Shown: positions 2,188 through 26,842 of the stretch, piece by piece
How positions within the stretch are numbered: position 1 is the stretch's first letter
Layout of the letters: each line of letters starts with the position of its first letter
Assembly (NCBI GenBank): GCA_039803545.1
Contig: JBDRYS010000002.1
Coordinates: forward strand, 68,385 to 132,384
Origin: a candidate division WOR-3 bacterium
GTDB lineage: Bacteria; Hydrothermota; Hydrothermia; UBA1063
Reading direction: 5' to 3'
DNA: 64,000 nt
Program-made: the position numbers and the translations under genes
The notes under the pieces: generated by a model
What the model saw: only the letters and a program-made list of their open reading frames with translations
What the model was told of the DNA's origin: nothing
Databases searched by the model: none

Positions 2188-4335
2188 ATGGAACTAATTA
2201 AGTTAATCGAAAAAGTTGAAGAATATAAAGAAAAGCATAGCTCGATAACGCGAGCCCTTTCAAAGTTAAGCGACTTTTATAGCAAAGGTGAGATCACGGA
2301 AAAACAGTTCCTCATTCTAAAAGCGGATTATGAAAAGGAGATTAATTTTCTGACTAAGGAGCTCAACGAGCTTCTCAGTGAGGTAAAATCCAAAGTTGAA
2401 GAATTTGAGAATAGGTTAAAAGAGCTTAATATAGAGTATAAGAGAACTAAAATCGACATCCTCCTCGGTGATAAGCCTCCCGATATAGGAAGAGCAGAAT
2501 TAGCAAAAATAGCCAAGGAAATTGCTTTAACCAAACACGACTACAAGCAGTACAAAGCAATTCTCGAAGCAGAAACAGAAGAAGATTTCGAGAAAATAAG
2601 GAAAATGGCCCCTCCCACAAGCATTAAGGTAGAAAATGTCACCCCTGTCAATGAGTTACTGGAACAAGAAGAACAACTCAAAAAGAAGCGTTTAGAAGGT
2701 AAAGCTCAACTTTACTTAAAACCCCTTGAGGAAATTTACAAAAGGCTTGAGAAAATAAAGGATTTCTTAACAGAAAGCCTCACGGAAGTTGAAACGGTAA
2801 AAAATGCTCTTGAAGAAGAGGCAGGAAAGCTCGTTATAAAAATACGAATGGGCGGACCTGAAGAACAAAGCGCCAGAAATAGATTGATGGAAGTCATTAA
2901 AAAAGTGAAAGAGTACGATGAACTCCTGGCCAAGATTAGCAAAACCGTTGAAGAAATTAATAAGAGGCTGGGTGAAAAAGAACTTATAATGGTAGAAAGT
3001 CAGGAAGATGCCTCCAAGATCGGGCAGATAGAAGAGATTAACCTGGAGGAAGCTTCTAAAATACTAGAAGAGCTTGAAAAACAGGGTGTGGAAGTAATTA
3101 GTACGGTCCCTGAGGAAAAAGTCGAGGAAGAGAAGGAAGAAGAGGAAGAATTAACTAAGGAGCCCGCTCCAGAGTTTAAAACAGTAAAAAGCAGGAAACG
3201 CTCGCCTCTCGTTCCAATCCTCGTCTCAATTCCTATAGTATTGGGTTTACTTTTTGCAGTCTATAGAAAATTCTTCTTTACACCTTCACAAGAAGAAAAG
3301 GTAATATTCCCTGTATACATGGGCAATTCGGAGCACAATTTCAACGTAAAGGCCCTTTTGGGAAATCAAGTACCACGCATTGATTGGTCAAGGAATTTAA
3401 CCGGTATTCCGTCACAGCCTGCGATAAACAACGGCATAATATATGTAGGGACAGACCAGGGGATATTGTACGCATTAGATACTCTCGGTAATGTGCTTTG
3501 GCAGACAAACTTAAATGGCAGTATTAATCACGCTCCGGTTATATTGAATAACAATATAATCGTTGGCACTTCAAATGGAGTTTTACACATTATCAACACT
3601 TCGGGTCAAATATTGAAGTCAAAGAGTTTCAACGGGTCCATTGTCGCACCCCCTATTGCCTTCGGCGATATAATTTACGTACCTGTTTTTCAAGATGGTG
3701 TATACGCATACAACATCAATCAGGACAAAATTGAATGGAAATTCTCCACCGAGGGAATGGTTAAAAACATGCCTTTAATTGATGAAACAAACCTTTATGT
3801 GGCCGATTTAAACGGAAATATTTATATCGTGAATAGAACAACAGGAGTTGAGATAAACCACATTAAAACTTCAGCCCCAATAGAAGCTTATCTAAATCTC
3901 TATGAAAAACAGCTGTTCTATGGAAACACAGCAGGCGAAATAGGGTGTTTCGATGTGGCAAAGAATACTATCTTGTGGTCTTTTAACTTTACAGAGCCAG
4001 TCACTGGATCCCCTGCGGTTAAGGATAGCTTCGTAGTTGTAAGTACCGCTTTTGGAAAGATCTACTCCCATAACACAAAAACAGGAATCAGGATGTGGAC
4101 TTTTGACACTAAAAATTTTATATCTTCTACACCCGTGATTATCGATACCTTCGTACTTGTTTCAACTACAACCGAAACGGGAGAATTTGGTGAACTTTAC
4201 TGTCTGAACCTTAATAATGGCAATCTAATCTGGGTACTTCCAATACCCAAAGTCCTTGAAACCTCTCCACTCTTATGGGGCAGAAGGTTATTCATTGCAG
4301 CAAGGGACGGAACTTTCTATTCCTTGAGCTTTTGA
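2188..4335 (+). CDS. Coiled-coil / single-TM / PQQ-like beta-propeller repeat protein
   Basis: 724-aa track ORF from TTG 2161; ATG 2188 is preferred. The N-terminal ~330 aa is E/K-rich and coiled-coil. A hydrophobic helix PLVPILVSIPIVLGLLFAVY follows, then repeated motifs of the type IIYVGTDQGILYALD / LYVADLNGNIYIVN, typical of PQQ/BamB-like propeller blades. Confidence 0.6.
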   Translation: MELIKLIEKVEEYKEKHSSITRALSKLSDFYSKGEITEKQFLILKADYEKEINFLTKELNELLSEVKSKVEEFENRLKELNIEYKRTKIDILLGDKPPDIGRAELAKIAKEIALTKHDYKQYKAILEAETEEDFEKIRKMAPPTSIKVENVTPVNELLEQEEQLKKKRLEGKAQLYLKPLEEIYKRLEKIKDFLTESLTEVETVKNALEEEAGKLVIKIRMGGPEEQSARNRLMEVIKKVKEYDELLAKISKTVEEINKRLGEKELIMVESQEDASKIGQIEEINLEEASKILEELEKQGVEVISTVPEEKVEEEKEEEEELTKEPAPEFKTVKSRKRSPLVPILVSIPIVLGLLFAVYRKFFFTPSQEEKVIFPVYMGNSEHNFNVKALLGNQVPRIDWSRNLTGIPSQPAINNGIIYVGTDQGILYALDTLGNVLWQTNLNGSINHAPVILNNNIIVGTSNGVLHIINTSGQILKSKSFNGSIVAPPIAFGDIIYVPVFQDGVYAYNINQDKIEWKFSTEGMVKNMPLIDETNLYVADLNGNIYIVNRTTGVEINHIKTSAPIEAYLNLYEKQLFYGNTAGEIGCFDVAKNTILWSFNFTEPVTGSPAVKDSFVVVSTAFGKIYSHNTKTGIRMWTFDTKNFISSTPVIIDTFVLVSTTTETGEFGELYCLNLNNGNLIWVLPIPKVLETSPLLWGRRLFIAARDGTFYSLSF

Positions 4336-4371
4336 TAGGACGATTTAATTCCTTTATAATTGAGCACAACA

Positions 4372-4444
4372 GGGCCGTTAGCTCAGGAGGTAGAGCACCG
4401 GATTTTTAATCCGGTGGCCGCAGGTTCGAGTCCTGCACGGCCCA
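4372..4444 (+). tRNA. tRNA-Lys (anticodon TTT)
   Basis: GGGCCGTTAGCTCAGGAGGTAGAGCACCGGATTTTTAATCCGGTGGCCGCAGGTTCGAGTCCTGCACGGCCCA folds as a cloverleaf. Anticodon stem CCGGA/TCCGG, loop TTTTTAA. No encoded CCA. Confidence 0.85.
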
Positions 4445-4509
4445 TTTTCTCAAAATTTTGATCCTTTATAATTTAAATGCCTTTTTACAATACCTAAGAA
4501 GGGGGGATA

Positions 4510-4983
4510 ATGTCCCGTGTCTTAATCATAATGGGCTCCAAAAAGGATATAACATTTTGTGAAAACATCAAGAAAGAATTAGCAAAATTCGGCATCGAAG
4601 TAATCCTACGCATTGGTTCTGCCCATAAAGTTCCCTTAAAGGTTTTAGAAATTCTTAAAGAGTATGAAAAGGAGATTGATGTCATCATTACCGTTGCTGG
4701 AAAAAGTAATGCGTTAAGTGGCTTTGTTGACGCTCAGACTTCAAAACCCGTCATTGCCTGTCCACCCTATTCCGAAAAATTTGCCGGTGCCGACCTCTTC
4801 TCATCCTTAAGGATGCCAGAAGGAGTAGCCCCAATGGTGGTGCTTGAACCAGAACAAGCCGCCTTAGCTGCAGCTAAAATTGTGGGAGTTAAAGATGATG
4901 AAGTAAGAAAAAAAGTCGAAGAATATCAGATAAAACTCAAAGAAGAAATTGAAAAAAGTGACAAGGAGCTTCTCAATGGGTAG
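4510..4983 (+). CDS. purE: N5-carboxyaminoimidazole ribonucleotide mutase / AIR carboxylase catalytic subunit (PurE family)
   Basis: IIMGSKKD...SAHKVP...VAGKSNALSG motifs of PurE. SD GGGGGG lies 5 nt upstream. Confidence 0.75.
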   Translation: MSRVLIIMGSKKDITFCENIKKELAKFGIEVILRIGSAHKVPLKVLEILKEYEKEIDVIITVAGKSNALSGFVDAQTSKPVIACPPYSEKFAGADLFSSLRMPEGVAPMVVLEPEQAALAAAKIVGVKDDEVRKKVEEYQIKLKEEIEKSDKELLNG

Positions 4984-6010
4984 CGTAAAGGACTTAATCG
5001 TATTAAAGGAACCAACAGAAGAAACGACGGGAGTGGGCAATTTCGTGTTTTCGGACCGTTACTCGGTCTTTGACTGGGGGGAAATGCCAGATCAAATACC
5101 GGATAAGGGTAAGGCCATCTGCATTGTAACCGCTTACTTTTTCGAAAAGCTGGAACAAAGGGGCATAAGGACTCACTATCTTGGTATAGTCGAAGAAGGA
5201 ACAGTAAAAAAACTTAACGATGTAAAAGAGCCCTCGAACACACTTCAATTTAAGATGGTAAGAGTAATAAAGCCCACTTTTAATGGAAAAGACTATGACT
5301 ACTCAGCTTTTAAGACTTTAAAATCGAATTTTCTTATCCCCCTTGAGGTTATTTACAGAAATAGCCTTCCTGAAGGCTCTTCGTTATTAAAGAGGCTCTT
5401 AAAGGGAGAGTGGAAGCCCGAGGATGCGGGGCTAAAAAGCATACCACAACCCGGTGAGAAACTGGAAAAACCCATCCTCGATTTTTCAACGAAACTTGAA
5501 GTTACAGATAGATACATAAAAGAAAATGAGGCCTTTGAGATCAGCGGACTCACACCAGAAGAATTTACTAAACTTAAAGAAATCGCAATTAAAATTAACG
5601 CAATTATCACCGAGGAGGTAAGCAGATTCGGCCTCGTTAACGAAGATGGAAAGTTTGAATTTGCCCTTGATGAAGATAGAAACTTAATGGTAGTCGATGC
5701 CGTTGGGGCTCTTGACGAGTGCAGGTTCACCTACAAAGGAATTCCTGTGAGTAAAGAGATATTGAGAATCTTTTACAGGAAAACTGATTGGTATGAAGAA
5801 ATCGAAAAAGCAAAGAAGGAGGATAGACAAAATTGGAAGAACCTGGTTAAATCCAATCCTCCTTCTCTACCCGGGGAGTGGAAAGAACTGGTGAGTAACA
5901 TTTATAAAAGCTATGCTAACGAAGTCACTGGAAGAAAATTCTTCGAAACTCCAACCCTGACCTCGCTTCTTTCAGAATTAGAAAAACTAATTGAGAGGTT
6001 TAGAGATTAA
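4976..6010 (+). CDS. purC: SAICAR synthetase (PurC family, long form)
   Basis: Start ATG 4976 overlaps the purE stop (ATGGGTAG). GSVKDL, SDRYSVFD and LIPLEVIYRN motifs match the PurC family. Confidence 0.65.
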   Translation: MGSVKDLIVLKEPTEETTGVGNFVFSDRYSVFDWGEMPDQIPDKGKAICIVTAYFFEKLEQRGIRTHYLGIVEEGTVKKLNDVKEPSNTLQFKMVRVIKPTFNGKDYDYSAFKTLKSNFLIPLEVIYRNSLPEGSSLLKRLLKGEWKPEDAGLKSIPQPGEKLEKPILDFSTKLEVTDRYIKENEAFEISGLTPEEFTKLKEIAIKINAIITEEVSRFGLVNEDGKFEFALDEDRNLMVVDAVGALDECRFTYKGIPVSKEILRIFYRKTDWYEEIEKAKKEDRQNWKNLVKSNPPSLPGEWKELVSNIYKSYANEVTGRKFFETPTLTSLLSELEKLIERFRD

Positions 6011-6014
6011 AAAA

Positions 6015-7841
6015 TTAAACGTTTTCCTGCTCAAGTATATTGACCACAACTTTGACAAGTTGCGGATCAAATTGCTTTCCACTTTCTTTAATTAATTCAA
6101 AAATGACTTGTTCTTTGTTCAAAGCCTTTCTGTAAGGCCTGTCAGAGAGCATAGTTACTACAGCATCAGAAATACAGAGAATCCGACCTCCTAATGGGAT
6201 TTCCTCGCCTTTAAGACCATTGGGGTAACCTTTGCCATCATAACGTTCATGATGGGTTTCAACATACAGAGCAGTCTTCTCAAGTCCTGGAATGCTTTTC
6301 AATATTTCCTTCCCAACATAAGGATGATTTCTTATCTCATCCCATTCTACACTATTAAGGGGACCATCCTTTAGCAGGATAGCCCTCTCCACCACAACTT
6401 TTCCGATATCATGAAGTAAACCCGCCACATATATATTTTTCTTTTCATCAGCAGGTAAATTTAAGGCCTCTGCAACTCTCAAAGCAAATTCAGCCACATC
6501 CTTAGAGTGATTTGCCGTAAAATAGTCCTTTTTGCTCTCAAGCTGGGAAAGAATTTCGATGATTTTATCGAGTGCTTCCACACTCTTTTCGTATAGGAAG
6601 AGATTTTTTGAAGCAACTTTTACAGAACTGAATAGTACCTTAATCAATTCTTGATCTTCATCAGTGAGCTTTTCTTTAATTCTGGACCCAAGAATGGCCA
6701 GGTAATTATGATTTTCGATAGAAAAAGAAACGGTAAGTAAAACCTTATAATTTAGGTCCGCATTCTTTAAGCAGGTGGTACAAACCTCCCCTTCTCCCTT
6801 TGCTTCTTCCTCAAGAGGCAAATTCTTCTTAATTTCGGCGAGCTCGCTCTTCGAAAAGCCAAAATTGTACAATAAAGTGAAATGACCCAAGTTATTGCTA
6901 TAAAAAGCGCAATTCTCTATCTTTACAATTTCTCTAAGGTATTCCCTTGACACATCAAAGATTTTTAGAAGACTTGACTCGCTTAAAATGTTCTCTGCGA
7001 GATCCTTAACAAAAAGCAGAGCCTTCAACCTTTTTTCTGAATCTTCACGATATTTCAGTAATTTCAAAACGCTGGTGAGATAAGGAATAAGAGACCTTAA
7101 AAGCCTAACCTCTGCTTGCGTATATGGCGGAAATCCATAATATCGCCCAAGATAGATCATACCGAAGAGTTTATTGTCTACGAAAAGAGGAACTATCATG
7201 ACCCTTTCAACTTTGTAATAGTCCACAAATTGTTTCAAGATTCTCGGTTCATTTTTAGCATCATTAATAACAACTATATCTTTTTTCTCAAGCACCTGAG
7301 AAGCTGCTGTCTCCGGTGTAAGTGGAAAGTTGAACACGCCCTCGATGACCACATCTCCATGAAGAGAAAAGTCCATATAACCCTTACCCCTACCTAAAAG
7401 ATAATTAGTTACTTCATCGTAAACGGTGATACCTCCGATTGTCGAAGAAGTGATTTGGCAAAGGTGTTCTATGATTTCATTATAAATTTCGTCAAATTCC
7501 TTAACCATAGTAACCTTGTGCACAAACTCGTCAACAACACTCTGAAGGTACTCAGATTCAGAAATGGTCAATATAAGCTTTGCAAACCCTTTATGAATAT
7601 TCAACCACTTTACCAATCGTTCATCAGTTCCTTCAAAAGTAATAATTAAAGCACTTGGCGTATCAAGAAAGGCTACTTTATCATCAAAGGCAAAAATCTC
7701 GGGTATCTCGCCAGTCAATCCTATAAAATGTTGACGGTAAGGTGACTCATACACATTGTAATAGAACTCAACTCCCTTTGCCTGAGGTACAGCTTCTTTT
7801 AACAACGACTCAAAACTCAACAAAACCTTATTCTCACTCAT
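6015..7841 (-). CDS. GAF-domain HD-GYP cyclic-di-GMP phosphodiesterase
   Basis: C-terminal HDIGK...HHERYDGKGYP (HD-GYP signature) with N-terminal GAF-like regions. Start moved to ATG 7841, which sits 6 nt after a consensus -10. Confidence 0.7.
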   Translation of the reverse strand: MSENKVLLSFESLLKEAVPQAKGVEFYYNVYESPYRQHFIGLTGEIPEIFAFDDKVAFLDTPSALIITFEGTDERLVKWLNIHKGFAKLILTISESEYLQSVVDEFVHKVTMVKEFDEIYNEIIEHLCQITSSTIGGITVYDEVTNYLLGRGKGYMDFSLHGDVVIEGVFNFPLTPETAASQVLEKKDIVVINDAKNEPRILKQFVDYYKVERVMIVPLFVDNKLFGMIYLGRYYGFPPYTQAEVRLLRSLIPYLTSVLKLLKYREDSEKRLKALLFVKDLAENILSESSLLKIFDVSREYLREIVKIENCAFYSNNLGHFTLLYNFGFSKSELAEIKKNLPLEEEAKGEGEVCTTCLKNADLNYKVLLTVSFSIENHNYLAILGSRIKEKLTDEDQELIKVLFSSVKVASKNLFLYEKSVEALDKIIEILSQLESKKDYFTANHSKDVAEFALRVAEALNLPADEKKNIYVAGLLHDIGKVVVERAILLKDGPLNSVEWDEIRNHPYVGKEILKSIPGLEKTALYVETHHERYDGKGYPNGLKGEEIPLGGRILCISDAVVTMLSDRPYRKALNKEQVIFELIKESGKQFDPQLVKVVVNILEQENV

Positions 7842-17662: not shown

Positions 17663-20600
17663 TTAATTGAATTTTCTAAGAAATTCTAATAGAAGATAAG
17701 CGCCCCTCTCCTTTAGCATGCCAAAGAAATACCCCCTACTTCTTGGGTCCTTAAAAACCGGGAATTCAGAAAAATCTATCAAAACCCTCAAAGGCTCTTC
17801 CCATATCAAATGGGAAGCTTCTGGTTCAATCTTCCCCTTTAAAATAGAATATAAAGCCAACCAGAGTAATCTTAACTCTTGGGAATCCTTTTCAATATAT
17901 TCTCTTAATGAGCATAGGGATTCGTAATCAAGATAATCCACTTCACCCTTACAAAGGTAGCTTACACCTGCGGCGTAGAGTATTGATTCGGCCTTCCTAA
18001 GGCTAAAATCAGAATAACCTTCAAGCTCTTTTGCCTCTTTAAGATATTTTTTTGCAGCCTCACAATTCTCCATCAAGCATTCTAAAACAGCACAGTAAAC
18101 CTTTATCTGAAAAAGTTTTTCGCTATCATTGAGCTTAACGTACATTTCTTCTGACTTTAAGAAAGACTCCTTCGCTTCCTTAAACCTTCCCAACCTGTAA
18201 TTTAATATCCCGTTCAAAAAGAAAAGGATGGCGACGCGGGAGGGATGAAGACTGGGATAATTTACAATCACTGAATCAAGGAGTTCCTTTCCCTTCTCAA
18301 AATCAAATAACTCAAGGTACACATTTACAAGATTTATTGTAGACTCAGCTACATAACTTGGCAATTTTAAATCAAGGAAAATTCTCCTTGCTTCTAAATA
18401 GGAATTCTTTGCTTTTTCAAGGGCTCTCTTATTGAAATACACTCTTCCTAAATTGTGCATGACAATTGCTAATAAGAATCTACTTCCTGAATTTTTTATC
18501 ACAGACAATGCTTCTTGCAGGTAGTCTTCTGCAACATCAAATTTCCACAACCCAAGGTATATCTGGCTTAAATTTATTAAAATTTTTGCCCGTGCAGTAA
18601 GTTCACCTAACTCTTCAAAAATGGATTTGGCCTTTTCGTAATAATAGATTGCCCTTTCATAATTTTTGCAAACTTGTTCAATGTTGCCTAATAAATTAAA
18701 ATCTGCACCGAGCGTCCTTAAGGCATCCCATGTACTCAACCCATATTTTTCGATAATTTCAATACTTACATTAACATACTTTCTTGCACTTTCGTAATCT
18801 CCAATTCTCCAATAAACCCAAGCTTTTTTATAGTTGGCGTATGAACTGATTTCAGGATCATCAGAATTTACGGCTTCTTCAAGATAACTGAAAGCTTCCT
18901 CAAACCTCGATAACTTCTCGTAAATACTGGAAATTAGAATTTTGTACTTTAGCCTTAATGTATCCCCCTCAGCAATCTCCCCAATATGAGAATTTAGTAA
19001 ACTCAAGGAACTTTCGAAATCACCAAGACCCTCAAGACACTGAGCTATTTTATAAACAGACTTTGGAGTCTCTCTAAGATTTTTGTAACACTGTAAAGCA
19101 TAAGAGTAAAATCCTTTTGAAAAAGCGAGATCTCCAGCAGTTTCATAATAAAGGGCTGCTTTACTTGTGTCACCAAATCTCTCATAATGATAGGCTATCA
19201 TAAAAAGCATGTATTCATCTTTAGCTTCAACTTTTTCCAATTGCTGAGCAACCAAACTATGAAGCCTTTCTCTTTCCTTTTTGGTTATTAACGAATAAAC
19301 TGCCTCCCGTAATAGCTCGTTTTTAAAAATATACTCGAAGTCACCCTGAATAAATGACTTTCCCTGCGAAATAATAAAACCATTTTTTTCCAGTTCATTT
19401 AACTCTTCCCCAATCGATTTTCCAACTATTACTTCCAGTACGCCCCGCCAGAAATGCCTTCCAATTACCGAGGCAACTTTCAAAATCTCCTTCAAGGGTT
19501 CCGAAAGGTTATCGACTGCAGAAACCAACAGTCCATTAATAGACCCAGGAATCTCGTATTGTTCCTCTTTAATTCGTAAAGGGTTAAATTCCAGAAGCCC
19601 CTTGTCTCTCAAAAAGTAAATAAGTTCTTCGATGAAATAAGGATTGCCTTTCGTTTTTTCAAGCATTACACTAAAAAATTCCTCAGAGATTGAATCGGCC
19701 GGGACCTGCAAGATTGTAGAACAAACTTTTTTAACAAAATCTTCCCCCAACCCCTTCAGTTCCATCTTAAAGTCCACGGGAAAATACCCAAGGGACTCCC
19801 TCGAAATACACAATACGATAATATTCCCCAAGGTAATCTTCTTTGAACACTCATTTAAAAAGTATCGCGACTCGCTATCAATAAACTGGCAATCATCGAG
19901 AAAAATAATGAAGTTAACGACATCCTTAGCCAGGAATTCGAATAATCCCTGCATGCTTGCTAAAAACTCCTTAATTAATTCATCAGAAAACTGCATTTTT
20001 CCATTAAGAAAGGTGGATATTCTCTCCCCCAAAATGTCTGCATCTATTTTCGAAAGAGCATGATTTTTCTGTAGATACTCAGATATAGTCTCTTGAGTTT
20101 TCCATGAATAGGGCACTACCGCTGATAATATATCTTCCAATATTTTTCTTAAGGCATAGAGAGGCTGCTGTTTAATAGGATCGCACCTAAAAAAAGATAC
20201 TTTAGCTTTCGGTAAAATCGTTGTAATTCTCTCCTTAAATTCTGAGCACAACCTGGTTTTCCCTATTCCCGCCTCTCCTGTGATTTCGCAAAAATGGACG
20301 CCCGGTTTTGATGATTTGTCCAACACCCATTTTTCCAGCTCTAAAATCTCAGCTTCCCTTCCTACAAAAGGTGTCTTAAAACGACCGCGGATGGAGAACT
20401 CACTCTCCACCGGTTTCTCCCCTACAACTTCAAACACCTTCACCGGTTCTTCTCTGCCTTTAACTTTAAAGGTTCCTACATCTTTAAAGTAAAAATTCTG
20501 AAATGTTAAACTTACGACAGAATCAGTTACGTATACTTTCCCAGGTTCAGCTATGTCTTCGATTCTCTGTGCAACATTGACTGTATCGCCCAAAACGGTA

Positions 20601-20992
20601 GGTTTTTCACCCGCAATGGAAGACCACAATACTTCTCCGACATTGATCCCTATCCTCATCTTAACTTCTGTTCCTCTCTGAGTATTCACCTCTTCTAAGT
20701 GCTTTTGCATGGCAAGCGCAGTTATAACGGCCCGCCTTGCATCGTCTCCATAGGAAACAGGCGCGCCGAAAACCGCCATCACTGCATCCCCTATGAATTT
20801 ATCAAGATATCCACCATTTCTCTCAATTATCTCCTTAAACTTCCTAAAAATACTGTCAATCAGCTCCTGCAAATCCTCTGGGTCAAGAAATTCAGACAGA
20901 GAGGTAAACCCCTTAATGTCACCGAACAAAACGGCGACTATCCTCCTTTCGGGTTTAACACTGGATCTATTGTCAATTCCCATTTTATCCAT
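17663..20992 (-). CDS. Class III adenylate/guanylate cyclase fused to a STAND (AAA_16-like) NTPase and TPR repeats
   Basis: N-terminus VAVLFGDIKGFTSLSE...FIGDAVMAVFGAP...RIGINVGEV (CHD cyclase). Walker A GEAGIGKTRL. C-terminal half made of TPR-like repeats. 1109 aa. Confidence 0.8.
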   Translation of the reverse strand: MDKMGIDNRSSVKPERRIVAVLFGDIKGFTSLSEFLDPEDLQELIDSIFRKFKEIIERNGGYLDKFIGDAVMAVFGAPVSYGDDARRAVITALAMQKHLEEVNTQRGTEVKMRIGINVGEVLWSSIAGEKPTVLGDTVNVAQRIEDIAEPGKVYVTDSVVSLTFQNFYFKDVGTFKVKGREEPVKVFEVVGEKPVESEFSIRGRFKTPFVGREAEILELEKWVLDKSSKPGVHFCEITGEAGIGKTRLCSEFKERITTILPKAKVSFFRCDPIKQQPLYALRKILEDILSAVVPYSWKTQETISEYLQKNHALSKIDADILGERISTFLNGKMQFSDELIKEFLASMQGLFEFLAKDVVNFIIFLDDCQFIDSESRYFLNECSKKITLGNIIVLCISRESLGYFPVDFKMELKGLGEDFVKKVCSTILQVPADSISEEFFSVMLEKTKGNPYFIEELIYFLRDKGLLEFNPLRIKEEQYEIPGSINGLLVSAVDNLSEPLKEILKVASVIGRHFWRGVLEVIVGKSIGEELNELEKNGFIISQGKSFIQGDFEYIFKNELLREAVYSLITKKERERLHSLVAQQLEKVEAKDEYMLFMIAYHYERFGDTSKAALYYETAGDLAFSKGFYSYALQCYKNLRETPKSVYKIAQCLEGLGDFESSLSLLNSHIGEIAEGDTLRLKYKILISSIYEKLSRFEEAFSYLEEAVNSDDPEISSYANYKKAWVYWRIGDYESARKYVNVSIEIIEKYGLSTWDALRTLGADFNLLGNIEQVCKNYERAIYYYEKAKSIFEELGELTARAKILINLSQIYLGLWKFDVAEDYLQEALSVIKNSGSRFLLAIVMHNLGRVYFNKRALEKAKNSYLEARRIFLDLKLPSYVAESTINLVNVYLELFDFEKGKELLDSVIVNYPSLHPSRVAILFFLNGILNYRLGRFKEAKESFLKSEEMYVKLNDSEKLFQIKVYCAVLECLMENCEAAKKYLKEAKELEGYSDFSLRKAESILYAAGVSYLCKGEVDYLDYESLCSLREYIEKDSQELRLLWLALYSILKGKIEPEASHLIWEEPLRVLIDFSEFPVFKDPRSRGYFFGMLKERGAYLLLEFLRKFN

Positions 20993-21369: not shown

Positions 21370-21894
21370 TCAGAATCTATCCTTAATTTTATAAAAAATT
21401 TTACCCCCGGCGTAGCCTATAAGGGCACCGGCAACGACATCCGTTGGCCAGTGCCTTCGCAAATAGACCCTTGAAATAGCAACACCAGTTGCCCAAAGAT
21501 ATAAGGGAACTCTATATTTCGGGTACATTGAACTATAAAAAGACGCAACATAAAAAGCCGTGGTAGCATGCCCTGAAGGGAAAGAAGAATTACTCCGATT
21601 AGTCACACCATCGGGACGCTCCCTATTAGTAATGTACTTAATTGTCTGCATTAATAACGACGTTGCGCCAAGACCAAGCACATAAGACCTCATAACCGGC
21701 TTTTGGCAATCTCCCCAGAAAGCCCAGTAGAGCATAGAACCGAACATCACAACCTCACCATTTCCACTACTTGTAAATGTTTGAAAAACAAAATCTGACA
21801 CAGGCGCATGCAATCCTTCTGAAATGATCTTTAGCCCTGAAGAATCAATGCTTCCAAGTGAAAAAGCAAGGAGTAATTCTGCAAAAATCCTCAT
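21370..21894 (-). CDS. PAP2-family lipid phosphatase (BcrC/PgpB-like)
   Basis: KxxxxxRP (NRERPDG), PSGH (SFPSGHAT) and SRxxxxxHxxxD (RVYLRRHWPTD) acid phosphatase motifs. Confidence 0.75.
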   Translation of the reverse strand: MRIFAELLLAFSLGSIDSSGLKIISEGLHAPVSDFVFQTFTSSGNGEVVMFGSMLYWAFWGDCQKPVMRSYVLGLGATSLLMQTIKYITNRERPDGVTNRSNSSFPSGHATTAFYVASFYSSMYPKYRVPLYLWATGVAISRVYLRRHWPTDVVAGALIGYAGGKIFYKIKDRF

Positions 21895-22151
21895 AAAAGC
21901 CTCCTTTGAATCTCTTCCTCCTTTAAATTTTCCAAAATTTCAATCACTTTTAACTTGCTACGAAATCCTGAAAGGATCCTCACTGAAGATCTATTTACTC
22001 CAAGCTTCTCTGAAATAAAGCCTAATAAGTCTTCGTTAGCCTGGCCTTCAATGGGCGGTTTCTTTACTTTTATTATATAAATTCCCTCTGAATATTTCGC
22101 ACCGTATTCCTTTGCGCCTGGCTGAACCTTAACCCTAATTTTCACTCCCAT
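21891..22151 (-). CDS. DUF167/YggU family protein
   Basis: 86 aa; IKVKKPPIEGQANEDLLGFISEKLGV matches the YggU family. Confidence 0.6.
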   Translation of the reverse strand: MGVKIRVKVQPGAKEYGAKYSEGIYIIKVKKPPIEGQANEDLLGFISEKLGVNRSSVRILSGFRSKLKVIEILENLKEEEIQRRLL

Positions 22152-22198
22152 TGCTAAATTATAATATCCATTTTGCGAATATCATCACTATAAGAACC

Positions 22199-22227
22199 TT
22201 GACATTTACTCTCAAAGAGCGTATAAT
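22199..22227 (+). promoter_or_regulatory. Consensus sigma70 promoter TTGACA-17-TATAAT upstream of the GGDEF gene
   Basis: TTGACA at 22199-22204, TATAAT at 22222-22227. A second TATAAT at 22234-22239 lies 9 nt before ATG 22249. Confidence 0.45.
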
Positions 22228-22248
22228 ATTGTATATAATATTAAAACG

Positions 22249-22938
22249 ATGGAAGAAATTATTCTTAAAGATCCGCTTACAGGGCTTTACCATCACAACT
22301 ACTTCATCATTAAAATGAACGAGGAAATCTCCCGTGCAAAGAGGAAAGGCGAACCAGTTAGCCTGCTCTTTATCGATATGGACTTCTTCAAAATGATTAA
22401 CGATAATTTCGGGCATCAGGTCGGTGATGAGGTACTGAAGCAATTTGCCGTAAATCTTAAGTCGATTGTTAGGGAATCAGATTTACTATTCAGATACGGA
22501 GGTGATGAATTTACAATTATTCTTCCTGATGTCTCAATGGACGAAGCCATCAAGATAGCAGAACGAATAAAAAACCAACTGGAAAATGACGGATACGGAC
22601 CCTCGAAAAACTTAAAGATCTCTCTAAGCGTAGGTATTTCTCAATTCCCCATTGATGCTACCACTCCGGAAGAACTCATAAAAAAAGCGGATGAACGATC
22701 CTTAATCAGCAAAAGAACGGGGAGAGGTAAAATAGTTTTCGGAAACGAAGTACAGGAAGAAATTAAAAGCTTATCTTTATCAGAACTTCGAATCATTGGA
22801 AGAGAAAGGGAAATAAATCTCATCTCAAAAGCCCTATCTGATTTTTCAACAACGGGGAAAAAATTCATATTAATCCTCAAAGGTGTCAAGGGTGTAGGAT
22901 TTAACAAGATTATTAGAGGAAACCTTAAAACTCGGTAA
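22249..22938 (+). CDS. GGDEF diguanylate cyclase. This is the 5' segment of a disrupted GGDEF-STAND-TPR gene; its C-terminus ends in a degenerate P-loop
   Basis: RESD I-site and RYGGDEF active site. The C-terminus IIGREREI...ILKGVKGVGFNK parallels GREAEI...GEAGIGKTRL of the paralog, but the Walker A lysine is missing. Confidence 0.75.
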   Translation: MEEIILKDPLTGLYHHNYFIIKMNEEISRAKRKGEPVSLLFIDMDFFKMINDNFGHQVGDEVLKQFAVNLKSIVRESDLLFRYGGDEFTIILPDVSMDEAIKIAERIKNQLENDGYGPSKNLKISLSVGISQFPIDATTPEELIKKADERSLISKRTGRGKIVFGNEVQEEIKSLSLSELRIIGREREINLISKALSDFSTTGKKFILILKGVKGVGFNKIIRGNLKTR

Positions 22939-22969
22939 AGTATTAGATCTCAAAACGCTTAGCGTAAAA

Positions 22970-25612
22970 ATGGGCGAGAAGGAAGCCGGAGAGCCCTTTC
23001 CTCTCCTCAAAGCGATAATAAGAAGCCTTGTATTAGAACAGAACTTTATCCCTGAAGATGAAGTCATAAAAAACGTAGTCAACTTTTTCCTTCCAGAATT
23101 TTTTAGTAGTAAAAATACCATCACGATTACTATGAACGAATCGAAGGTCCTCCCGGTAGTTGGCGAAATGCTCTTTGCATTCGCAGGAGATGAACGATTA
23201 TTAATAACCATTGATAATGGTCATCTACTAACCAGTAGATGTCTGCTACACTTAGCACAAATTTTAAAGCAGGATAAAAATTCCCAAATCTCATTAGTAA
23301 TGACTTCCAGAACCCAATCTCATATTTTAGAAGGCCTAAAAACGGTTGCGGATGAGATCCGCACCTTAGAGATACAACCTTTAATGCGTGAAGAAGTAAA
23401 AACGATGCTTTGGCAAATACTAAGGTTTGAACCTGATGAAGAATTCCTTGACTGGGTTATGGCTAAAACCGGTGGCAGACCACTGTACATTGACAAATTG
23501 TTAAATGCTCTACTGATATCTAAAAAGCTAATTCCAGGCGAAACGAAATGGATATTAAGCGACACATACTACACATTGAGTGAAAGCATCGCACTACCTT
23601 TAGCCGAGGAAATTCACTACTTAAACCCAAAAGAAAAAGAGGTTCTGGATTTTTGTGCTGTTTATAACATTGATTTCTCGATAGCTTTCGTGGCACAGGC
23701 TTTAGATTTATCTGTTTCAGAAACTCTGGAAATCTTCGATAACCTCGCAAGAAACGGATACATCGAAGAGGTTATACCATATACCATTTATCGCTTTTCG
23801 AACCCTTTCGTTCGAGAGGTCATCTATGCACAGATCCCAAAAGAAAAACGCACAAAAATCCACTTCAAAATTGCAAAAATATTAGACGAAAATCCTGAAG
23901 AAACGTCAAGACTTAATCCACAAGTTCTCTATGAGCATTTCATAAACGGAGGAATGGAAAGCAAAGCCATACCATACATCGAACTTTTGATTAAGAACTC
24001 CATTAAAAAAAGAGAATTCAAAAAGGCAATTAGATACATACAGAGAATTTTTGAAATTGCAGAATTTAAGCTGCAAGTTTCAGAAAAAATAGGTCTTATA
24101 AGACAAATGGGCATGTGCTTGAGATGTACAGGCGAATACGAGGAAGCTCTTAATAAACTAAAAATCGCACTGGATCTTGCCATAAGATACAATGAAAAAT
24201 ATGAAGAAGCTTTAATAAGACTCGAAATGGCCTGGATACAGCACGAATTGGAACTTAAAACAGAATTATTGCTCAATATTGAAGAAATCCTAAAAATTGC
24301 AAACCAGATAAAGAACAATGAAATTCTCGCAAAGGCGATGATTTACAAGGCGTTGTACTATCAAGATTTTGAGAAAAATGTTACCAAAGCTATTCTCACC
24401 TATGAGGAAATAATTGAGCTTATAAAAGAAGAGGAAAACCACGAAATTCTCTCGAAAATATATGGAAATCTTGGTAAATGCTATACGCAATTGAAGCAAC
24501 ACGCGAAAGCAAAAGAATCCTTCGAAATCGCTCTATACCACGCAAGGTTGTGCAACAATCCTGAATACTTGGCATCTATTATGTTAAATTACGGAACAAC
24601 CCAGTTCATAATCCAGGACGTAGAAAATAGCAGAATAACCTTTGAAAAAACTTTTGAGTTAGTCAAAACGGAAAATATAACGCACCTATTGCCCCATGTC
24701 TTACAAAATCTTGCAATGATATATTCCAATTATGGAGAATATGCTATTAGTATCAGCTATCTCGAAAAAGCAGTGGAATATGCAAGAGAAATGAAATTGG
24801 AACTCGAGGAGCTGAAGTATTTACTATTGCTTTATGGGGTAAGATCATATCTTGGGGAACACAGGTACCTGGCTTCCAAATTAAATGAAATTCTTGAGAT
24901 CTCCAAAAAGACTGGAAATTTAAACCTCTTAGAAAAGGCTGTTCAGTATCTTGTAAGAATTTACACTTTTCTCGGGGACTTCAACCAGCTGGAACAACTC
25001 CTAAGGGAAGTGCAAAATTTCAAAACTCCAAGAGAGAAGGTCCTTACGGAAATTCAAATCTTCGAGACACTTGCTGTGTTCTCTACCAATCCGGCTAATT
25101 TATTCCAATCCATCGAAAAGAGGAGAAGAGAGGCGATGGATAAACATGATTTTACAAGCGAAATTGGTTTCAGCACCGACCTATACCTTTACAAACTAAT
25201 AACAAAAGACAGTGTAGATATCGACTTAGAAAGATTACTGGAAGCAGCTAATAGTATAAAATTAATTAGAGTTTACATTGACCTTTTGCTTTTCGAGTTC
25301 CTCCTTGGTAGAAACAGCAAAAAATACGTACAACTTTTGAAAAACTTCGAAGGTAAATTTAATTTAAAGCAGAAACTTTTATGGGAGATAGGGTTAAATC
25401 TAATGGAGATTTCATCCAAGACAAAGGAAGATATCGAGAACAAAGTTAGCGAACTCGAGAAAAAATTCCAAGAGATAGAATCTAAATATGCTCTGAATCT
25501 CCTTTACAGAAGTCTCCTGAACCAGCCCGTAGTTCAAGAAACAGACCTTCAGGATCTATACAAAAATAAACTTAACAACCTTGTAACTGACAAACTTAAC
25601 TTTTACGTTTAA
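22970..25612 (+). CDS. STAND NTPase (post-P-loop portion) plus TPR repeat protein. This is the 3' segment of the disrupted GGDEF-STAND-TPR gene
   Basis: 880 aa. The reading frame is open from 22898 (DLTRLLEETLKLGKV...), matching TRLCSEFKERI of the paralog. Long TPR-like C-terminal half. Confidence 0.7.
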   Translation: MGEKEAGEPFPLLKAIIRSLVLEQNFIPEDEVIKNVVNFFLPEFFSSKNTITITMNESKVLPVVGEMLFAFAGDERLLITIDNGHLLTSRCLLHLAQILKQDKNSQISLVMTSRTQSHILEGLKTVADEIRTLEIQPLMREEVKTMLWQILRFEPDEEFLDWVMAKTGGRPLYIDKLLNALLISKKLIPGETKWILSDTYYTLSESIALPLAEEIHYLNPKEKEVLDFCAVYNIDFSIAFVAQALDLSVSETLEIFDNLARNGYIEEVIPYTIYRFSNPFVREVIYAQIPKEKRTKIHFKIAKILDENPEETSRLNPQVLYEHFINGGMESKAIPYIELLIKNSIKKREFKKAIRYIQRIFEIAEFKLQVSEKIGLIRQMGMCLRCTGEYEEALNKLKIALDLAIRYNEKYEEALIRLEMAWIQHELELKTELLLNIEEILKIANQIKNNEILAKAMIYKALYYQDFEKNVTKAILTYEEIIELIKEEENHEILSKIYGNLGKCYTQLKQHAKAKESFEIALYHARLCNNPEYLASIMLNYGTTQFIIQDVENSRITFEKTFELVKTENITHLLPHVLQNLAMIYSNYGEYAISISYLEKAVEYAREMKLELEELKYLLLLYGVRSYLGEHRYLASKLNEILEISKKTGNLNLLEKAVQYLVRIYTFLGDFNQLEQLLREVQNFKTPREKVLTEIQIFETLAVFSTNPANLFQSIEKRRREAMDKHDFTSEIGFSTDLYLYKLITKDSVDIDLERLLEAANSIKLIRVYIDLLLFEFLLGRNSKKYVQLLKNFEGKFNLKQKLLWEIGLNLMEISSKTKEDIENKVSELEKKFQEIESKYALNLLYRSLLNQPVVQETDLQDLYKNKLNNLVTDKLNFYV

Positions 25613-26018
25613 TTTCAAACTCAAACAGAGATTCCGTAAGCTTTTTGTCAAACAGGCGAAGTACTAAGAAGTAAATAGCCATGAAAGCAAACCCGGTTAA
25701 TGCAGACGTTAACTCTGATAATCCGAGGGAAACACCAGCATAATACCCAAGAACAAAGGCAATTATTGGAACTATAAAGATTAGAGAAGTGGCAGCAATA
25801 ATTCCTGACACCTTCTCCTCTAAGATAACCTCGTCACCTGGTGCAAATCCATTACCTCGAACTTCTATAATGTCACCTTCGTCTTTCTTTCCGCCTATGC
25901 TACAGAACTTTGAAAATCCACAGGAAGAACAGGATCCGCCTTCTCTCAATATCTTAACAAGGTACTCACCTTCCCCAATCTTTTGAAGTACAATGCCTCT
26001 TAAGCTTTCTTTGTTCAA
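25596..26018 (-). CDS. RseC/MucC-family (SoxR-reducing system) membrane protein associated with Rnf
   Basis: Cys cluster GGSCSSCGFSKFC followed by two TM helices. Last gene of the rnf operon. Confidence 0.6.
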   Translation of the reverse strand: MNKESLRGIVLQKIGEGEYLVKILREGGSCSSCGFSKFCSIGGKKDEGDIIEVRGNGFAPGDEVILEEKVSGIIAATSLIFIVPIIAFVLGYYAGVSLGLSELTSALTGFAFMAIYFLVLRLFDKKLTESLFEFEIKRKS

Positions 26019-26842
26019 GATACCTTTACCTCAGCAAACTTCTTGTCTATTGCGATAGCTCCAGTTGGACAAACACTCACAACCTTTTCAGCAACTTCAT
26101 CAACCTTATCAGGCTGTAAAATATATGCCAGGTTATTTTCAAGTTTCATGGCACCTTCCGGTGCATTCTTAACGCAAAGGCCACAACCTATACAGGCTAC
26201 TTTACAATAACTCTTTGCAACAGGCCCCCTATCAAGACTCTTGCAGAAAACAAACACCTTCCTATCCACAGGTACCAGTTCAATTATGTCCCTTGGACAT
26301 GCCTCAACACATTTACCACAGGCAGTGCATTTTTCTTCAATCACCTTAGGCAACCCATCCTCTCCCATATACATAGCACCAAAGGGACAGGCATCAACAC
26401 AGTCACCGAAACCAAGACAACCATAAGTACATCCCTTATCACCCTTCAATGTAAAGTCAGCTACTCTGCAAGACTCTATCCCGTTGTACTCAGCCCTTCG
26501 CACAGCATTCTCTTTAGAACCATTACACATAACTTTTGCTACAAGCTTGGTGACAGTTACAACATCAAGTCCCAAAAAGTGAGAAATCTGATTAGCTACG
26601 TCCTGGCCTCCCGGAGCGCACTTTCCTGGGTTCTTTTCATGACCACTGGCGAGTGCCTCTGCATATCCTGCACAACCAGAATATCCACAGGCTCCGCAAT
26701 TGGCACCAGGAAGAATTTCGAGAATTTTTTCAACCCTCGGATCTTCTTGAACTGCAAGCTTTTTGAAAGAAATTAATAAAAAGAGACCAAAAAAGAGACC
26801 AAGTCCAAGAGAAAGAATCAAACTGTAAACTATTGTGTTCAT
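26015..26842 (-). CDS. rnfB: Rnf electron transport complex subunit B (polyferredoxin)
   Basis: N-terminal TM, NCGACGYSGCAGYAEAL motif, several CxxCxxCxxxCP 4Fe-4S motifs. Confidence 0.85.
   Translation of the reverse strand: MNTIVYSLILSLGLGLFFGLFLLISFKKLAVQEDPRVEKILEILPGANCGACGYSGCAGYAEALASGHEKNPGKCAPGGQDVANQISHFLGLDVVTVTKLVAKVMCNGSKENAVRRAEYNGIESCRVADFTLKGDKGCTYGCLGFGDCVDACPFGAMYMGEDGLPKVIEEKCTACGKCVEACPRDIIELVPVDRKVFVFCKSLDRGPVAKSYCKVACIGCGLCVKNAPEGAMKLENNLAYILQPDKVDEVAEKVVSVCPTGAIAIDKKFAEVKVS

Follow-up and report, generated by a model that had tools for sequence, protein, structure and literature searches.

Two open reading frames of a candidate division WOR-3 assembly read as one GGDEF-NOD-TPR gene with an extra T

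STAND NTPases with a TPR sensor have been described in PH0952 of Pyrococcus horikoshii (PDB 6MFV) and in MalT of E. coli, and STANDs are known to operate through an ADP/ATP-driven switch from a closed to an open state (PMC6468293). The locus reported here combines a module of this kind with a diguanylate cyclase and is located in a window of 64 kb (the whole stretch of DNA that was analysed) from a metagenome-assembled genome (MAG) deposited at NCBI. The initial annotation had looked to Thermotogota for relatives of this DNA, while the window belongs to candidate division WOR-3. With high confidence, we read the locus as one ordinary GGDEF-STAND NOD-TPR gene that carries one extra T in codon 218 in this MAG alone. 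The features to which the text refers are as follows, all on the forward strand.

22199..22227, +, promoter of sigma-70 type ahead of the gene, TTGACA-17 nt-TATAAT, in agreement with the consensus at 12 of 12 positions
22249..25612, +, whole gene as found in relatives, 1120 codons (GGDEF, NOD and TPR), interrupted in the window by one extra base
22249..22938, +, ORF1, 229 aa, NCBI MEO0239337.1; 217 native residues, the 12-residue out-of-frame tail FNKIIRGNLKTR, then TAA
22267..22728, +, diguanylate-cyclase (GGDEF) domain over aa 7-160, with an RxxD I-site (22471-22482) and the GGDEF motif itself (22498-22512)
22882..22906, +, NOD motif that resembles a P-loop, G-V-K-G-V-G-(L)-T, in which the lesion falls; aligns with GEAGIGKT of the paralogue and GxxGxGKT of outgroup homologues
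22900..22902, +, lesion in codon 218 (TTA, Leu); TTT in place of the TT of all relatives
22904..23929, +, remainder of the NOD in the +1 frame, from aa 219 to about 560, with NBD, helical and winged-helix parts; LLITIDN (Walker-B-like), 23198-23218; G-R-P (GxP motif), 23474-23482
22970..25612, +, ORF2, 880 aa, NCBI MEO0239338.1; starts at internal Met241 and has no ribosome-binding site
23957..25612, +, TPR / MalT-type sensor region, aa about 570-1120, and stop codon

Two reading frames of one gene

The two ORFs are as initially annotated. The C-terminal end of ORF1 reads ILKGVKGVGFNKIIRGNLKTR followed by the stop, while the +1 frame is open from 22898, after a TAG at 22895-22897, and reads DLTRLLEETLKLGKV...MGEKEAG. 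The frames of ORF1 and ORF2 meet at GGA-TTTA-ACA (22897-22906), with GGA at 22897-22899, TTTA at 22900-22903 and ACA at 22904-22906. The earlier reading of the DNA as GGA-TTTA-ACAAGA is exact, but the junction had been placed at about 22893-22897, and the true junction lies a few bases to the right. Removal of one T yields 1120 aa with no stop, a GGDEF-NOD-TPR protein of an uncultured WOR-3 bacterium.

The joined protein shares 98% identity with the intact metagenomic orthologue P0001 and 51-81% identity with seven others (P0002-P0008), each of which is a single intact ORF. These eight full-length single-ORF orthologues are 1118-1146 aa long and cover 97-100% of the joined sequence. In a BLASTP comparison with the paralogue at 17663..20992, the alignment passes straight over the junction (E = 9e-11), which bears out the alignment of the joined frames with this paralogue that had been proposed initially. 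Because eight intact orthologues cover 97-100% of the joined sequence and the paralogue alignment crosses the junction, the proposal of one GGDEF-STAND-TPR gene split by a 1-nt lesion within a P-loop-like motif holds. On these sequence comparisons the joining of the two frames is far beyond chance, and ORF 22249..22938 and ORF 22970..25612 are best regarded as two frames of one gene. The NCBI annotation lists them as two separate proteins, MEO0239337.1 and MEO0239338.1, which should be treated as parts of a single frameshifted gene.

A deliberately split gene, with a stand-alone GGDEF enzyme and a separately translated NOD-TPR protein as two subunits, would account for two ORFs that are both long and open, for the two proteins in the NCBI annotation and for the short distance (31 nt) from the stop to the next ATG. 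We consider such a design very improbable. The cut falls inside the NBD, between what are predicted to be its first strand and first helix, and ORF1 finishes with 12 out-of-frame residues. The ATG of ORF2 has no Shine-Dalgarno sequence, against 35 of 47 window genes that have one, and the sites in use in this genome are strong ones (GGAGG). In relatives with more than 95% identity the residue at Met241 is either Ile (P0001, P0123, P0125 and P0134) or Leu (P0129), and all orthologues at 51-98% identity are fused. No orthologue among those examined is split at the window's site; other split versions break elsewhere, and one of them is an assembly error. The option of a deliberate split that had been offered initially is thus not sustained. 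The gene's own ATG at 22249 was likewise found to have no Shine-Dalgarno sequence before it; the promoter at 22199..22227 is the only such site within 21800-26100.

It is equally hard to credit that full-length protein is recovered from the TTT template by a programmed +1 ribosomal frameshift or by slippage during transcription. A +1 shift anywhere in 22898-22935 would yield a full-length product, and one exactly at TTT-A would alter residue 218 only. Yet no orthologue needs recoding, since all sequences examined are contiguous save three assembly-specific breaks, and three T in a row are far too few for the polymerase to slip. Inspection of 22870-22940, which is a reading of the sequence and not a statistical test, reveals neither a slippery codon ahead of a stop or rare (hungry) codon nor an SD-like stimulator upstream. 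A prfB-type programmed +1 frameshift would be expected to have its site conserved in orthologues, and all orthologues are contiguous at this site. The missing Shine-Dalgarno sequence before ORF2 and the Ile or Leu at Met241 in close relatives therefore leave a designed split or recoding unsupported.

A native P-loop that lacks the Walker A lysine

The domain content of the protein was evaluated with profile models, and the native orthologue P0001 was run against them as well. ORF1 matches PF00990 with 151.6 bits (cut-off 23.8), and P0001 matches TIGR00254 with 160.1 (cut-off 37.4). The GG(D/E)EF active-site motif and the conserved metal- and GTP-binding residues are present, as is an invariant RxxD inhibitory site (R75-E-S-D78) five residues before GGDEF. 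An NBD-HD-WHD fold, the mark of a STAND protein, is situated between this effector and the repeat sensor. The joined protein gave weak AAA_16 and AAA_22 matches, with scores slightly above native as the query carried Lys at the junction. Among PDB sequences, a profile search brought up no relative of the NOD; relatives emerged from fold searches only. A PADLOC scan made no defence-system assignment for the GGDEF protein. By analogy with its domain homologues, a ligand bound to the TPR sensor of the intact protein would change the conformation or oligomeric state of the NOD, and this change would bring the GGDEF domains together for c-di-GMP synthesis under RxxD product inhibition.

The AF2 model places the P-loop-like motif between strand 206-212 and helix 218-231. 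An AAA (Lys) codon had been expected at the lesion, and this expectation fails. In eight of eight intact orthologues the position of the Walker A Lys is occupied by Leu or Ile (GVKGVGLTR, GVKGAGLSR, GMKGIGITR etc.), nine close variants likewise have Leu or Ile, and the DNA of L001, L011 and L002 reads TTA. The motif of the clade is G-x-x-G-x-G-(Leu/Ile)-(Thr/Ser)-Arg, in which the Gly residues and the Ser/Thr are kept and the phosphate-binding lysine of the Walker A consensus GxxGxGK(S/T) is lacking. The lysine is present in the paralogue, in the outgroups P0135 (the nearest), P0153, P0223 and P0009, and in 147 of the 157 instances of the motif among the closest NOD homologues. Leu or Ile throughout the clade means that the NOD is natively lysine-less and that the lesion therefore did not destroy a Walker A lysine, so the dead P-loop that had been attributed to the lesion is native to the clade. 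A guess of a lysine codon from the motif can fail in a degenerate family, and a check against orthologues is needed. The second acidic residue of the Walker B-like LLITIDN is Asn, and D322 is retained in seven of eight orthologues (Asn in P0008). We considered this D-N pair as a sign of a dead ATPase and rejected it, because the Lys-bearing relatives P0153 and P0009 share it.

We tentatively propose a wider reading, which we hold to be a serious possibility that stops short of the probable: P0001-P0008 (51-98% identical) could represent a pseudo-NTPase of STAND origin in which TPR sensing is coupled to c-di-GMP synthesis and the canonical ADP/ATP switch plays no part, with the rest of the NOD under strong constraint, and the frameshifts of the window and L006 together with the stop of L004 could be real segregating null alleles. 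The lysine-less P-loop across the clade is only a mildly new point. A small conserved clade of diguanylate cyclases under a STAND module without the Walker A lysine is of modest biological interest, and offers a natural test case of whether a NOD can signal without nucleotide hydrolysis.

Error or recent null allele

The DNA of relatives locates the lesion precisely. A global alignment with contig L001, which is 98% identical, contains a single net frame-shifting indel in 6 kb, namely the extra T at 22900-22902, although when gap penalties are relaxed some clusters of substitutions come out as +1/-1 pairs that compensate each other. Contigs L001, L004, L005, L006, L008 and L011 read GGA TTA ACA at the site and the 80% relative L002 reads GGA TTA TCG. 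Since relatives have TTA at codon 218, the lesion is a change of TT to TTT inside a native Leu codon. TT is found at the site in eight other independent contigs (L001, L002, L004, L005, L006/L007, L008-L010, L011 and L012), and GVGLTR in P0123, P0125-P0129, P0133 and P0134. The extra T is also absent from seven other intact proteins of the 90% cluster to which this gene belongs, and of which 15 of 32 members were examined. An exact look-up of ORF1 and ORF2 among encoding contigs returned no match, and the cluster listing has both in NCBI only; there is therefore no independent assembly of the TTT allele. A scan of the contigs of representative genomes, among which the source species is not included, picked up the 80% relative L002 and, besides it, no more than a GGDEF locus that is unrelated. 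Across the sequences compared, the extra T is private to this MAG and the insertion has no evolutionary depth. It shifts the frame so that translation ends 12 codons on, with the remainder of the gene left as an 880-codon ORF from an internal Met without a ribosome-binding site. If the insertion is real, the product in the cell would be a GGDEF-only fragment that escapes regulation, with the sensor part made scarcely or not at all.

The interrupted allele shows no decay. On the window's own branch there are 10 synonymous and 3 nonsynonymous changes (7 and 3 downstream of the shift), and none of the three private amino-acid changes falls at a column that is invariant in distant orthologues. No further indel or stop was found in the window gene, and a singleton analysis indicated no relaxed constraint in L006 or the window. 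A decayed pseudogene was considered and rejected: the frame is broken, but there is no further lesion, the synonymous to nonsynonymous ratio is 10:3 and no private change occupies an invariant column.

Other assemblies carry breaks of the same gene. In L008-L010 a C4 run is reduced to C3 at codons 133-134, which in L008 leaves a split of 143 + 880 aa. L008 is 99.95% identical to the intact L011, and 8 kb of its sister assembly L009 contain 14 homopolymer indels; judged from these sequences, the L008 break is demonstrably a long-read homopolymer error in an under-polished contig. L006 has its own frameshift (A6 to A5 at codons 204-205) and is identical to the independent Logan assembly L007. 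In L004, TGG is changed to TAG at an invariant tryptophan (W388*). Such breaks raise the alternative of recurrent natural loss, in which a c-di-GMP cyclase gene would be repeatedly knocked out in hot-spring WOR-3 through relaxed selection, positive selection in favour of loss or a switch akin to a contingency locus, and one such real null allele would be present in the window. This is consistent with three different 1-nt indels, each in another assembly (the window, L006/L007 and L008-L010), that all lie within the gene's first 652 nt, with W388*, with flanking genes that are intact over about 20 kb in each broken-allele assembly, and with the agreement of L006 and the Logan assembly; the L006 frameshift and the L004 stop could mean that the gene is genuinely being lost repeatedly. 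Against it, the window was chosen for its frameshift, only L006 and L004 are independent among roughly 13 sequences, and the case rests on 15 of 32 cluster members. The runs of 2, 4 and 6 nt are too short for classical phase variation, and none of the broken alleles is under relaxed constraint. Recurrent inactivation was downgraded because L008 is an under-polished long-read contig and there is no relaxed constraint in L006 or the window, and we regard it as improbable.

For the single insertion in this MAG, both of the origins that had been offered initially, a genuine frameshift and a sequencing error, remain live. The classic long-read error deletes a base from a run of at least four, and the change of TT to TTT is not of this type. 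No second indel error was found within the 64 kb of the window, which favours a real mutation. The rest of the assembly is clean, with 95% coding density, with rpoB, rpoC, fusA, tuf, secY and all ribosomal-protein genes intact, and with only one gap between the window and L011/L012 over 11.4 kb. The lesion resembles the residual homopolymer indels of long-read metagenome assemblies in that a single-base change in a mononucleotide run splits one gene, as in L008/L009 against L011, and differs from them in being an insertion in a two-base run with no second such indel in 64 kb. By our own estimate from these sequences, a consensus or assembly error is slightly favoured as the source of the extra T, and a null allele that arose very recently in the population sampled is nearly as likely. 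Because the same gene in a sister assembly is broken by a proven homopolymer error, frameshifts in MAGs call for read-level confirmation.

Comparison with known systems

The closest comparison within the window is with the paralogue at 17663..20992, a class III nucleotidyl cyclase-AAA_16-TPR protein that shares the three-part plan and has a NOD of the same type (22% identity across 480 residues). TIGR03903 (TOMM kinase/cyclase fusion) matches a region shared by the two proteins, and in each of the two genes a TATAAT box lies shortly ahead of the ATG and no SD is present. The paralogue differs in its Guanylate_cyc effector, its canonical GEAGIGKT Walker A, its FLDD Walker B and its intact gene. 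It also matches PycC models (PADLOC), only via the generic cyclase domain.

Relative to PleD and WspR, the regulator of the present cyclase is a C-terminal NOD-TPR module rather than an N-terminal receiver, PAS or GAF domain, and in the window assembly the GGDEF domain is cut off from this module by the frameshift. Relative to the STANDs PH0952 and MalT, the effector is a GGDEF cyclase and not a DNA-binding domain, and the Walker A lysine is replaced by Leu or Ile in every member of the clade; the ADP/ATP closed-to-open switch of those proteins may therefore not operate as such in this one.

One gene in two reading frames

Two reading frames, listed as separate genes by NCBI on a 369,492-bp contig of a candidate division WOR-3 MAG, occupy the region downstream of a perfect promoter.

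22199-22227: promoter TTGACA-17-TATAAT, perfect (sequence match)
22249..22938, + strand: ORF1, 229 aa, C-terminal end ...ILKGVKGVGFNKIIRGNLKTR before the stop (MEO0239337.1)
22970..25612, + strand: ORF2 as listed, start ATG at 22970, frame running to 25612 (MEO0239338.1)

At the junction, frame 0 reads GGA (22897-22899) followed by TTT and AAC. The +1 frame has a TAG at 22895-22897, is open from 22898 to 25612 beginning with DLTRLLEETLKLGKVLDLKTLSVKMGEKEAG, and reads TTA (22901-22903), ACA (22904-22906) and AGA. The initial annotation had given this DNA as GGA-TTTA-ACAAGA, which reading the codons in both frames showed to be exact, although its junction coordinates were a few bases off.

Joining the frames yields 1120 residues, of which 183-637 align across the junction with the paralogous cyclase-AAA_16-TPR protein at 17663..20992 (BLASTP, E = 9e-11). 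A search of 5.8 billion proteins recovered eight full-length orthologues, each a single ORF. The paralogue alignment and these orthologues bear out the proposal that the two ORFs are one split gene. The proposed GGDEF-STAND-TPR architecture is likewise sound: Pfam places a GGDEF domain at aa 7-160 (151.6 bits) and TPR/TPR_MalT matches in the C-terminal half, NCBIfam TIGR03903 spans aa 179-602 of orthologue P0001 (E = 1.1e-21), the AlphaFold2 model of P0001 has a mean pLDDT of 87, and the top PDB match by Foldseek (E = 2.3e-15) was 6mfv_A, in which the STAND protein PH0952 carries a TPR sensor. P0001 (UniRef A0A7V3J9Y0) is labelled candidate division CPR3; the 98%-identical window proteins are labelled candidate division WOR-3 by NCBI.

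Table. Single-ORF orthologues: identity and P-loop motif (alignment A1).
P0001: 98%, 1120 aa; GVKGVGLTR
P0002: 81%; GVKGAGLSR
P0003: 78%; GVKGAGLSR
P0004: 59%; GVRGVGLTR
P0005: 56%; GVKGVGLSR
P0006: 51%; GMKGIGITR
P0007 (named candidate division WOR-3): 51%; GLRGVGITR
P0008: 52%; GVKGSGITR

The interval from the -10 box to the ATG (window 22228-22248) has a 14-15 nt indel polymorphism; the window and L001, a 98%-identical contig, read TATAATATTGTATATAATATTAAAACG-ATG with a duplicated TATAATATT, and contigs L004, L005 and L006 have the ATG about 7-9 nt after TATAAT, a start that looks leaderless. A CC/CCC difference (22197) lies immediately 5' of the -35 box. Four first genes of transcription units, at 17663-20992 (-), 21007 (+), 21891-22151 (-) and 22249 (+), have no Shine-Dalgarno and a TATAAT-like box about 5-10 nt from the ATG, in contrast to the strong GGAGG sites at most window genes, a pattern that points to leaderless transcripts from these signalling genes. 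The 3' end overlaps by 17 nt (25596-25612) a convergent RseC/MucC-like gene (25596..26018, -) heading the Rnf operon, whose rnf genes extend to about 31269, an arrangement kept in L001, L006, L008 and L011.

The extra base

Global alignment with L001 (JGI Ga0123519) gave 51 substitutions and a single indel, the additional T at 22900-22902; with laxer gap penalties some substitution clusters become compensating +1/-1 pairs and the frame is unchanged. The codons at the site are GGA TTA ACA AGA (G-L-T-R) in L001 and L011, and GGA TTA TCG AGA in L002, an 80% relative. The lesion is TT to TTT within a Leu codon. A pattern scan of metagenome contigs, permitting TT or TTT, added two near-identical contigs, L004 and L005, both with TT. 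The TT form is found in L001, L002, L004, L005, L006 (identical to L007), L008 (same contig as L010), L009, L011 and L012, and TTT is confined to the window among the contigs compared.

When substitutions were polarised using L001, L004, L005 and L002, 10 synonymous and 3 nonsynonymous changes fell on the branch of the window itself, 7 and 3 of them downstream of the shift. The three amino-acid states private to the window all lie outside the columns that distant orthologues keep invariant. This pattern marks an allele under purifying selection up to the present, so the insertion is either very recent or not real. The window is otherwise well assembled: coding density is 95% (greedy ORF map), rpoB, rpoC, fusA, tuf, secY and the Rnf operon are all unbroken, as are the S10-spc-alpha ribosomal operons, which are complete. 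Same-strand overlapping pairs, considered as candidates for additional splits, are distinct complete genes in all but two cases, where Pfam annotation is absent or partial. No second frameshift was found across the 64 kb, and comparison with L011 and L012 over 11.4 kb gave a single gap.

The idea of a deliberately split gene is not supported. GGAGG-type Shine-Dalgarno sequences precede 35 of 47 genes checked and none was found in the 25 nt before 22970 (AGATCTCAAAACGCTTAGCGTAAAA); relatives with over 95% identity have Ile or Leu in place of Met241; and the break lies inside the nucleotide-binding domain, between strand 1 and helix 1 in the P0001 model. None of the orthologues examined requires a frameshift, and inspection of the 38-nt window for +1 rescue revealed no slippery codon plus stop and no long A/T run. 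What stands of the initial reading is a frameshifted single gene, not the expected Lys codon or the split by design. We regard the extra T as an ordinary one-base indel private to one MAG, with an error and a newborn null allele about equally probable.

Other interrupted copies

Two more split versions occur within the same 90% cluster.

L006/L007, L006 9282-12643 (= window 22856-22861): A6 to A5 in GGGGAAAAAATTC, codons 204-205, 207 + 880 aa
L008/L010 (Ga0453288_0504, 61,393 bp), 3705-7066, and L009 (= window ~22647-22650): C4 to C3, codons 133-134, 143 + 880 aa

These separate 1-nt frameshifts first pointed to a gene repeatedly inactivated in nature across relatives. L006 (JGI Ga0496376_000001, 721,915 bp) is 100% identical to the Logan assembly L007 (SRR25522543), and its frameshift, the only one in 22.6 kb, is concordant in both assemblies and may be real or an error. 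The L008 case, however, is a homopolymer error: L008 is 99.95% identical in DNA to L011, an intact copy from a sister sample, and once repaired it encodes the same protein as cluster member P0128. Within 8 kb, its sister contig L009 (61,503 bp) shows 14 homopolymer indels of one base each, so L008 is a long-read contig with residual errors. Since the window was itself chosen for its frameshift, there is little independent support for repeated real loss.

L004 (Ga0272449_1008845), a short metagenome contig, carries a TAG stop in place of the TGG for invariant W388 (window ~23411-23413) and G115E at another invariant site; its private-change ratio there does not depart significantly from the usual, and the stop could reflect either a genuine null allele or an error near the contig end. 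The independent short-read contigs L004 and L005 end about 60 nt apart inside the gene (window ~23625 and ~23681), some 700-760 nt downstream of the junction, which may be a strain-variable spot that breaks assemblies.

A P-loop without lysine

The AAA (Lys) codon expected at the junction was derived from the paralogue and is inapplicable, as the orthologues carry Leu or Ile (Table). GVGLTR also occurs in each of nine additional 90%-cluster members. A query with the NOD part against 1.84 billion representatives gave just two proteins at E < 1e-30. P0135, the closest outgroup (30% identity, likewise GGDEF plus NOD), has GDRGCGKT, and Lys is present in 147 of 157 motif instances from the 149 nearest NOD homologues. 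Because the clade has Leu or Ile where the outgroup and most NOD homologues have Lys, the absence of the Walker A lysine is an old and fixed trait of a small clade. The Walker-B-like LLITIDN was discarded as evidence, as Lys-bearing relatives have D-N too. In four distant GGDEF-linked homologues (P0010, P0011, P0012 from Dactylosporangium, and P0017) a first P-loop-like motif has Arg, Leu, Tyr or His in place of Lys, and a second motif about 230-250 residues further on is the canonical GxxGxGKT of the NB-ARC type; degenerate P-loops that immediately follow a GGDEF domain may be more widespread.

GGDEF enzymes are active only as dimers. In this gene the GGDEF catalytic motif and I-site are intact, the middle module has a STAND-type NOD fold and the C-terminal part is a MalT-like TPR sensor. 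By analogy with STAND proteins (PMC6468293), ligand binding by the TPR sensor would alter the conformation or oligomeric state of the NOD, whereupon the GGDEF domains would pair and make c-di-GMP. A NOD without the Walker A lysine is probably unable to hydrolyse nucleotide and perhaps unable to bind it, which means that switching may not depend on nucleotide. If real, the extra T would leave a 229-aa GGDEF fragment detached from its regulator, with little or none of the remainder, effectively a null or deregulated allele.

The paralogue at 17663-20992 (-) differs in being intact (1109 aa), with a class III nucleotidyl cyclase-AAA_16-TPR architecture; its Walker A is the canonical GEAGIGKT and its Walker B is FLDD. 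Pycsar PycC models match its cyclase domain moderately well (best E = 2e-21), probably through similarity common to cyclases in general. The architecture of the gene studied here is of a known kind, and its clade-wide lysine-less P-loop is the sole mildly new element.
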